From an uncultured Bacilli bacterium (GTDB lineage: Bacteria; Bacillota_I; Bacilli_A; RF39; UBA660): 64,000 nucleotides of DNA. The notes beneath the pieces are model-generated. The model was given only the letters and a program-made list of their open reading frames with translations. It was not told the DNA's origin and did not search any database. The position numbers and the translations under genes were made by a program. Below are positions 29,259 through 29,915 of the stretch, in pieces (position 1 is the first letter of the stretch; every line of letters begins with the position of its first letter). The stretch lies in assembly GCA_947632405.1 (NCBI GenBank), contig CANRPE010000001.1, positions 42,095 through 106,094 of the forward strand. The letters run 5' to 3'.

Positions 29259-29915
29259 ATGAACGGAGCAACAGGTATGAATCCTGTAAAAATTACTGCA
29301 AGTATGGATAGAATAGAAGCAGCATACTCAAATTTAATGGATGCATTAAGTACAGGAACACAAACACAATTTGTTGATAAAATGTCACAATGTTGGGCTT
29401 GTAAACAAGCACAAGACTTTTTTAATGAAAGTTTTAAACCAGCTATTGATGAATTATTAAAAGGTTGCAGAGAAACATTTGAAAGTGTAATCGATTCAAT
29501 GAATAGTGCAGCAGAAAGTTGGGGAAATACTGTACAATATAGTTGGGCAAGAAGATCTTTTTCAGGAGCAGACGGATCTAATCAAGTTGATGTTAGTTGT
29601 ATTCAAGAAAATATTGGTGATGATCGTGGTGCAGTAGAAAGTGAAGTAGAAAATGCTTTAACAAGTTTTAATAGTATTGCTGAAAATGCAGGTCAAGCTT
29701 TAGATGAAGCAATTAATGCAGTTCATGAATGTGGATTCTTAGATCCATCTGGAAATCAAGAAGCATCATTAGTTGAAGCATTAACAGGAGTAAAAAATAA
29801 TATTTTAGATTCAGCTCAAAAACTTACAGATGAAACAAAGCAAGCAGTAAAATCAACAGTAGAAACATATGGTTCACTTGCTACAAATGTATCATCAACT
29901 TGGTCAGCTTCATAA
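29259..29915 (+). CDS. WXG100-like helical protein, double length (218 aa), with a degenerate W-A-C motif
   Basis: A strong AGGAGG Shine-Dalgarno. The N-terminal VKITASMDRIEAAY resembles the ESAT-6 family start (IRVTPEEL...). CWACKQAQDFFNESFKPAIDEL aligns with YukE MWEGASSEAFADQYEQLKPSF. A second half carries SWGNT. The composition is A/S/T/G/E-rich and the coding GC (about 35%) is higher than its neighbours. Confidence 0.55.
   Translation: MNGATGMNPVKITASMDRIEAAYSNLMDALSTGTQTQFVDKMSQCWACKQAQDFFNESFKPAIDELLKGCRETFESVIDSMNSAAESWGNTVQYSWARRSFSGADGSNQVDVSCIQENIGDDRGAVESEVENALTSFNSIAENAGQALDEAINAVHECGFLDPSGNQEASLVEALTGVKNNILDSAQKLTDETKQAVKSTVETYGSLATNVSSTWSAS

Follow-up and report, generated by a model that had tools for sequence, protein, structure and literature searches.

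The gene p218 lies at positions 29259–29915 on the forward strand of a 64,000-nt stretch of DNA from an uncultured Bacilli bacterium of the RF39 lineage (assembly GCA_947632405.1, contig CANRPE010000001.1, positions 42,095–106,094; this whole stretch is called the window, and coordinates given without a locus name are its own). It encodes a protein of 218 amino acids (aa) and stands 430 nt downstream of a gene for an EssC-type ATPase, the motor of Firmicute-type type VII secretion systems (T7SS). We suggest that p218 is probably a T7SS-associated member of the ESAT-6/WXG100 superfamily built as a single-chain bundle, and the EsxA-equivalent substrate of a minimal T7SSb-like system. The following features were assigned to the gene and its immediate flanks.

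29174–29203, + strand: promoter-like site, TTGAAA-18 nt-TATGAT, its -10 extended by a preceding TG, 10 of 12 consensus matches
29243–29251, + strand: Shine-Dalgarno sequence AGGAGGAGG, 7 nt 5' of the p218 ATG
29259–29915, + strand: p218 coding sequence (open reading frame (ORF) call), 218 aa, ATG start; predicted single-chain two-hairpin WXG100-like protein
29283–29393, + strand: helix 1, residues 9–45 (DSSP on the model); covarying pairs 16-78, 16-81, 15-81 and 34-59 place it antiparallel to helix 2
29394–29402, + strand: turn 1, W46-A47-C48, counterpart of W-x-G; W46 aligned to the W of ESAT-6 and canonical WXG100 proteins
29403–29531, + strand: helix 2, residues 49–91, containing S87-W88-G89 (W-A in the family), from the model and family alignment
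29532–29636, + strand: crossover linker, residues 92–126, motif D-V-S-x-I-x-E-N-I-x-G-x-R-G-[IV]-D, from conservation and covariation
29637–29726, + strand: helix 3, residues 127–156, antiparallel to helix 1 and parallel to helix 2 (pair 74-151)
29727–29753, + strand: turn 2, residues 157–165, E-C158-G159-F160-L-D-P-S-G, from the model and family alignment
29754–29870, + strand: helix 4, residues 166–204, ending in Y204, from the model and helix 2-helix 4 covariation
29871–29912, + strand: putative C-terminal export arm, residues 205–218, pattern Y204-x3-A208-x2-V211-x3-W215, aligned end-to-end with the ESAT-6 C-terminus
29919–29982, + strand: conserved intercistronic hairpin, with a long stem at 29925–29982 and a short alternative hairpin at 29919–29938

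An AlphaFold2 model of p218, built on a 10-sequence alignment with elements assigned by DSSP, reached a predicted local distance difference test score (pLDDT) of 85.1 and a predicted TM-score (pTM) of 0.80; besides the elements listed above it holds a short helix (residues 207–217) and isolated bridge residues at 46, 125 and 206. The topology was tested independently by mutual information with average product correction (MI-APC) on 136 p218 sequences, the set on which residue conservation was also computed. Ladders of covarying pairs join helix 1 to helix 2 (i+j about 94–97) and helix 3 to helix 4 (i+j about 326–328), ten pairs with i+j = 169–178 connect helices 1 and 3, and pairs with i+j = 250–254, including 50-203 (often E-K), connect helices 2 and 4. 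The N-terminus is tied to the end of helix 2 (7-88, 7-92), and the end of the linker packs on turn 1 (49-123, 48-123, 47-119, 49-118 and 55-115, with bridge residues 46 and 125). By our own count, ~37 of the top 45 covarying pairs are consistent with one model of the protein. Model and covariation thus support a hairpin fold in each half, as the original prediction had expected, and an antiparallel four-helix bundle within one chain. As modelled, p218 is two helical hairpins packed antiparallel, with a 35-residue linker crossing the length of the bundle, that is, a single-chain copy of the WXG100 dimer. Foldseek searches of PDB at E ≤ 1e-3 gave no match for p218 or for its downstream neighbour p186, only generic four-helix bundles; the best-probability hits of p218, which were not significant, were the ferritin-like bundles Dps, bacterioferritin and YciF. 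Ferritin-like bundles share the up-down-down-up crossover topology of the p218 model, and these hits agree with it.

Similarity to WXG100 proteins was sought with single sequences and with profiles of each half. The Pfam WXG100 model (PF06013) matches the single p218 sequence over residues 7–87 at E 0.0083, and it matches 14 of 119 relatives at E ≤ 0.1, with a best value of 1.5e-5. A shallow 10-sequence profile found a de novo designed protein as its sole match in PDB; a 60-sequence profile of the N-terminal half found ESAT-6 (3fav_B and 1wa8_B) at E 0.002 across the whole hairpin, W on W, and the next natural PDB protein followed at E >0.2. Using hhalign against a hand-entered four-sequence WXG100 reference, the N-terminal half aligned over 83 columns (P 7.6e-5, 62% probability) and the C-terminal half over 71 columns to the very C-terminus (P 5.6e-4, 30% probability). 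The N-half score of 28.0 compares with a maximum of 19.9 among 150 column-shuffled controls and 16.3 for the reversed profile, and the C-half score of 24.6 with 18.4 and 14.0, respectively. The two halves also resemble each other (P 1.2e-4). The sequence link of the halves to WXG100 is suggestive and stays below the level normally required for homology. Still, with both halves ahead of their shuffled and reversed controls, ESAT-6 recovered by the N-terminal half and EssC adjoining, the proposal of a double-length WXG100-like protein from which this study started finds support, though in amended form; searched separately, the N-terminal half carries the likeness and the C-terminal half follows more weakly. 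The turn alignment with YukE put forward in the same proposal is correct, without gaps, for the Trp and for a Phe eight residues later, but the K-P pair is offset by two residues. The best natural PDB matches of the C-terminal half (residues 106–218, 29574–29912) were type III secretion system (T3SS) tip proteins (IpaD and the pathogenicity-island protein 2p7n, E 0.004), covering the C-terminal hairpin of the tip proteins with the G-F turn aligned. We regard these as probable helical-hairpin noise, with spike heptad repeat 1 (HR1), ZorA and designed bundles scoring within about tenfold.

A word-indexed search returned only nine relatives, at 38–45% identity; an exhaustive profile search expanded the family to 410 clusters (50% identity) at E ≤ 1e-3 and 284 at E ≤ 1e-10. 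Nearly all members are 209–225 aa long (typically ~214 aa), and neither Pfam nor NCBIfam has a model covering the family. Seven genome matches are metagenome-assembled genomes (MAGs): five bear the label uncultured Bacilli or Tenericutes, one Muribaculaceae and one just 'bacterium'.

The codons TGT-TGG-GCT-TGT at 29391–29402 specify C45-W46-A47-C48, which confirms that W-A-C replaces W-x-G in p218. W46 is Trp in 135 of the 136 relatives and position 47 is Ala in 101, while position 48 holds Cys in 85, Ser in 33, Ala in 6, Asp and Thr in 4 each and Gly in 2, giving W-A-[C/S] as the family motif of turn 1. The residues allowed at position 48 (C/S/T/D/A/G) would suit a helix N-cap rather than redox chemistry; residues of this type commonly cap helix N-termini. 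Turn 2 has the family motif [C/S]-G-F-[LIV]-G-G (position 158 Cys in 57 and Ser in 57; G159 in 122; F160 in 130). At both positions Cys and Ser replace each other with no strict coupling, and this speaks against a disulfide or a metal site: for C48 and C158 the combinations C/C, C/S, S/S and S/C occur 42, 30, 20 and 10 times. A C48-C158 disulfide was rejected on these grounds and because turns 1 and 2 are found at opposite bundle ends. Other conserved positions are G6 (130), G124 (131), Y204 (111) and Phe at 215 (111), together with the linker residues I115, E117, N118, I119, G121, R123 and G124. The SWGNT that the original prediction had noted in the second half is no second WXG: it reads W-G-N, it lies inside helix 2 (49–91), and 110 of the 136 relatives have Ala at position 89. 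The true second turn is residues 157–165, and none of the 60–260 aa ORFs of the whole window contains a W-x-G motif.

Some relatives (P0074, P0081, P0097) carry C-terminal extensions of 170–210 aa that share a …DIDFSKI.TNANDAANGNF…KDYWGD… segment. A Pfam scan of the extensions in the longer relatives returned no domain and no recognisable toxin domain. In one related locus (L014, 847–2812) a plain 221-aa and an extended 426-aa copy lie in tandem upstream of EssC. The extended relatives suggest that the p218 module can carry cargo, as secretion domains do.

The C-terminus of p218 resembles the export arm of WXG100 proteins, for which Poulsen et al. defined the motif HxxxD/ExxhxxxH (PMC3935865). 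The family arm consensus YGDTEGKVSQAF (Y-G-D-T-E-G-K-V-S-Q-A-F) is close to the ESAT-6 arm MASTEGNVTGMF (M-A-S-T-E-G-N-V-T-G-M-F), and p218 itself reads Y-G-S-L-A-T-N-V-S-S-T-W, in which the hydrophobic motif positions fit. Among the relatives the acidic position 208 is Glu in 30 and Ala in 56, and Ile or Val is found in 104 at the hydrophobic position 211. In WXG100 dimers the Trp turn and the export arm form a bipartite secretion signal, and in EspB a Tyr contacts the Trp within one chain (PMC10765036). A further set of covarying pairs (83-214, 80-214, 166-208 and 170-212) joins the arm to the opposite end of the bundle; in the model these cannot be intramolecular, and they may stem from molecules that touch head-to-tail or antiparallel, or from phylogenetic noise. 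The protein is acidic (isoelectric point 4.25), and sequence analysis found neither a signal peptide nor a transmembrane (TM) or hydrophobic segment.

The neighbouring genes form a cluster (21060–31106) with the following members.

21060–24180, + strand: two DUF4176 genes (PF13780 on both small genes), then the gene of an 850-aa protein
24244–28833, + strand: EssC-type FtsK/SpoIIIE ATPase, secretion motor (TIGR03928, T7_EssCb_Firm)
28817–29092, + strand: 91-aa ORF, EsaB/YukD candidate by position; retained behind EssC in 8 loci
29997–30557, + strand: p186, constant downstream partner of p218; predicted four-helix protein whose conserved turn motifs are F-W-x-D (turn 1) and S-F-C (turn 2)
30566–31106, + strand: two overlapping genes of small helical proteins (100 aa and 81 aa), which complete the conserved four-gene cassette

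EssC scores 963 bits against TIGR03928, an NCBIfam T7SSb equivalog with a cut-off of 778.4. It is syntenic with p218 in every sufficiently long locus but one, and the order EssC / small ORF / p218 / p186 / ~100 aa / ~80 aa recurs, permuted or partial, in independent genomes (loci L001, L008, L010, L012, L014 and L016), where p218 identity is 38–45% or lower. The partner is missing in one case: L011 has a p218 homologue of 213 aa (p213) and no detectable p186. Modelled from a 3-sequence alignment (the word-indexed search found at most 3 proteins), p186 reached a pLDDT of 78 and a pTM of 0.52. The p218 profile weakly matches p186 homologues (E 9e-4 in a small database), and the two proteins, both of which have a conserved Cys close to turn 2, may go back to an ancient duplication. 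The 91-aa ORF has no sequence match in Pfam or PDB, and by BLASTP it reached E 0.13 with a hand-entered S. aureus EsaB sequence; as a YukD/EsaB candidate it has the right size and position, and the sequence tie was not obtained. Pfam and NCBIfam gave no match to EsaA-, EssA- or EssB-like proteins in the cluster, and in none of the eight cluster ORFs tested besides EssC did a 19-residue Kyte-Doolittle window exceed 1.2. The 850-aa protein matches nothing in NCBIfam or PDB and nothing in Pfam with confidence, a HopA1 hit at E 0.049 being faint; it is probably a T7SS effector candidate with DUF4176 chaperones. At similar positions, related loci encode large proteins other than the 850-aa one (761, 1373 and 1543 aa), and L001 adds a gene for a 234-aa protein kinase.

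The cluster lies between rsmG and noc/parA/parB near the replication origin, ~7–17 kb from dnaA and the GC-skew switch, and ten further window ORFs that were scanned are housekeeping genes. Elsewhere in the window are a SpoIIR homologue (53536–54072) and a class A penicillin-binding protein (46758–48731), and ORFs with MurA- and MreB-like N-termini as judged by eye. These genes would make the host a low-GC Firmicute with a cell wall and possibly with sporulation, although 'Tenericutes' is the label on related MAGs.

Several expression signals accompany p218. The duplex of its Shine-Dalgarno sequence with the canonical anti-Shine-Dalgarno CACCUCCUUUCU is worth -13.6 kcal/mol, second among 49 window genes after rpsF, in line with the near-perfect AGGAGG noted originally. 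The promoter-like site sits inside the 166-nt spacer 5' of the gene; it is a consensus match only, and this AT-rich region shows no enrichment of such sites (26 against 23.7 expected).

Between p218 and p186 the long hairpin (29925–29982) folds at -25.3 kcal/mol (z = -6.5) and shares one arm with the short one, making the two folds mutually exclusive. Equivalent stems of 15–27 bp, some of them bulged, occur in the same place in seven other loci at z -4 to -9:

L001, 10643–10733: equivalent hairpin
L008, 10634–10724: equivalent hairpin
L010, 10631–10726: equivalent hairpin
L012, 9639–9730: equivalent hairpin
L013, 3780–3865: equivalent hairpin
L009, 1175–1268: equivalent hairpin
L007, 1032–1110: equivalent hairpin

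Their consensus has 23 pairs, 8 of them with compensatory changes. A U-tract after the long stem is usually absent, and an Rfam scan of 20900–31300 gave no match. The hairpin probably sets the p218:p186 expression ratio, and may do so by attenuation, transcript-end stabilisation or (RNase III-type) processing. Together the promoter-like site, the Shine-Dalgarno sequence and the downstream hairpin fit a strongly made product, and because of them we infer that p218 would be abundant.

The unusual composition of the gene had also raised the question of a foreign origin. Among 63 ORFs p218 does rank first in G+C (0.332; window mean 0.247) and in its share of A+S+T+G+E (0.44), as had been noticed from the sequence, and its K+I+N+Y+F share (0.21) is the lowest. 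On the other hand, its G+C at third codon positions (GC3, 0.082) falls within the range of its neighbours (0.05–0.13), and the excess sits in the first and second positions (GC1 0.470, GC2 0.443). Synonymous choice is the host's, with A/T-ending codons only, no preference for C/G-ending ones and a mild GCA/ACA preference common to ribosomal genes. With GC3 and codon choice like those of the neighbours, the surplus of G+C lies in the amino-acid composition of the protein (Ala/Ser/Thr/Gly/Glu). Codon adaptation gave no clear signal, the ribosomal-versus-other log-likelihood score of p218 being one that ordinary genes also reach. In eight other loci the homologues differ from their own backgrounds in the same way, which, with the native codons, makes the composition a property of the protein family and not a trace of horizontal transfer. 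A recent horizontal acquisition, suggested by the highest G+C in the window, is contradicted by these observations and by the constant place of p218 within a conserved cassette, and we consider it hardly credible. The original prediction had named GC3 and codon usage like those of the neighbours as what would refute its reading; this is what the analysis found, and the separate origin that it had raised as a possibility falls.

How p218 may work can be pieced together from these results. As a monomer it would reproduce the four-helix bundle that ordinary WXG100 proteins form only as dimers. In the model one end of this bundle gathers the W46-A-C48 turn, the end of the linker (R123-G124), Y204 and the C-terminal arm, which would make a bipartite 'Trp turn + export arm' surface like that of WXG100 dimers and EspB, present once and in cis. 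Presumably made in large amounts from its own promoter-like site and very strong Shine-Dalgarno sequence, and set apart from p186 by the hairpin, p218 would be exported after the neighbouring EssC ATPase has recognised the folded bundle. In uncultured low-GC gut Bacilli, we infer, it would thereby serve a minimal T7SSb-like system as its core substrate, equivalent to EsxA.

We consider this account probable, though by no means secure, and several observations weigh against it. The PF06013 score of p218 (16.8 bits) is below the gathering cut-off of 27.3, and p218 has no match in NCBIfam, TIGR03930 included, at E ≤ 0.1. The WXG100 reference alignment consisted of hand-entered sequences of ESAT-6, CFP-10, S. 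aureus EsxA and YukE; the link of the C-terminal half to WXG100 is weak, and by itself this half finds no convincing database match. Foldseek returned no WXG100 or EspB structure at a significant E-value, the putative W46–Y204 contact is read from bridge residues and covariation, and p218 has Ala and not Asp or Glu at the acidic arm position 208. Moreover, loci L010 and L012 carry canonical W-x-G proteins of ~95–99 aa nearby, which could be the true EsxA equivalents there.

The main rival sees p218 as one subunit of a pre-secretion complex and not as an EsxA equivalent by itself. Together with p186, the 100-aa and the 81-aa protein it would adapt a large effector, for instance the 850-aa protein, for export, in the manner of Lap1/Lap2 for LXG toxins or EsxB/C/D for EsaD. 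The four cassette genes always occur together, p186 is a distant relative of p218 with a Trp turn of its own, the same clusters contain large uncharacterised proteins and DUF4176 chaperone-type genes, and small helical adaptor sets are the rule for T7SSb toxins (PMC10765036). We nevertheless hold this to be possible rather than likely: the predicted p218 bundle is closed and self-sufficient (pTM 0.80), its inter-hairpin contacts being intramolecular by covariation, EssC separates the cassette from the 850-aa gene, the cassette is also present where the neighbouring large protein differs or is absent, L011 has p213 without a detectable p186, and strong separate expression signals suit an abundant substrate better than a stoichiometric adaptor. 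It would be very unlikely, in our estimation, for p218 to be a non-secreted helical bundle (a cytoplasmic scaffold, or a regulatory, lipid-binding or surface-binding protein) whose likeness to WXG100 is convergence or noise. Such a view can appeal to the sub-threshold level of all WXG100 sequence similarities, to the Baculo_PEP_C, ApoLp-III and Apolipoprotein families, which are matched as often or more often, and to the generic bundles returned by Foldseek, but it leaves aside that ESAT-6 alone among natural PDB proteins stands out for the N-terminal half, full-length and W-on-W, that both halves exceed their controls, that the C-terminal arm is close to that of ESAT-6, and that synteny with EssC is tight, failing in a single sufficiently long locus. 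Finally, p218 might be more than a substrate and form the repeating unit of an assembly outside the cell or across its envelope, a filament or conduit for a minimal T7SS without EsaA, EssA and EssB. In it the arm would dock on the opposite end of the next molecule, and the single-chain bundles would polymerise head-to-tail or pair antiparallel. The covarying pairs between the arm and the far end, the high-output expression signals and the weak likeness of the C-terminal half to T3SS needle-tip proteins hint at this; we rate it as quite improbable.

Under the reading that we prefer, of p218 as a single-chain superfamily member and EsxA-equivalent substrate, the closest comparison is with the WXG100 proteins themselves (EsxA, YukE, ESAT-6/CFP-10; PF06013, TIGR03930). 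Common to both are the hairpin with an invariant Trp in the turn, the antiparallel four-helix bundle, an arm that is close to the ESAT-6 tail and, in p218 itself, fits the H-x3-(D/E)-x2-h-x3-H spacing at its hydrophobic positions, an acidic sequence without signal peptide, a gene adjacent to EssC, and a weak but co-linear profile similarity of both halves. p218 differs in its length (218 aa versus ~100, or 85–135 aa in the Poulsen census), in forming the bundle from an internal duplication and a conserved 35-residue crossover linker and not by dimerisation, in its W-A-[C/S] motif (G in 2 of 136), and in a second hairpin that has a [C/S]-G-F turn without Trp, which leaves the Trp-plus-arm surface at one end only; it also scores below the Pfam and NCBIfam thresholds. 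EspB, and with it the PE-PPE pairs of mycobacterial ESX systems, shares the logic of a 'pre-made dimer', with an adjacent Trp turn and Tyr export arm on one elongated helical bundle of the single EspB chain (PMC10765036). Yet EspB belongs to the actinobacterial T7SSa, its ~460 aa include an extended C-terminal region, and it originates from a PE-PPE-like fusion; it has no significant sequence or Foldseek match to p218, and only 3 of 59 C-terminal halves touch the related EspC family at E ~1e-3. LXG domains (PF04740) with their Lap and WXG100-like partners are likewise all-helical N-terminal modules of ~200 aa accompanied by small helical partner genes, and a few p218 relatives have C-terminal extensions much as LXG toxins carry cargo. 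In contrast, p218 has no L-x-G motif and is predicted to close on itself without need of partners, LXG is not in the 25 families most matched by 119 relatives (E ≤ 0.1), and nearly all members end at ~214 aa without a toxin domain.

At the level of the system, described T7SSs are said to share an EssC/EccC motor and a ~100-aa WXG100 protein working as a dimer, and every one of the subtypes b–j has a WXG100 protein, TsxA, none of them double-length (Garrett, Higginson and Palmer 2024, PMC11217815). The cluster resembles these subtypes in its EssC/TsxC ATPase, the small ORF in the TsxB position, the WXG100-related genes and, in L001, a kinase. It departs from them in having no EsaA/EssA/EssB-like protein and no TM protein besides EssC, and its components agree with none of the sets listed for them. 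Of the canonical T7SSb locus (EsxA, EsaA, EssA, EsaB, EssB, EssC), the window shares the Firmicute-type EssC, while EsaA, EssA and EssB were not found beside it. The minimal cluster may represent a subtype outside the published b–j scheme.

We conclude that p218 probably represents a sizeable unnamed variant within the ESAT-6-like superfamily and not a different kind of system, a finding of moderate interest to T7SS specialists. The monomer would be a convenient scaffold for structural and binding work on substrate recognition, and with its single Trp-turn/export-arm end it would offer a natural experiment on the number of signal surfaces that EssC requires. With 410 clusters, the p218 family appears to hard-wire the WXG100 dimer into one chain and to replace its signature Gly, and censuses of WXG100 proteins and T7SSs based on motif or length would miss both this family and the minimal EssC clusters of uncultured gut Bacilli.

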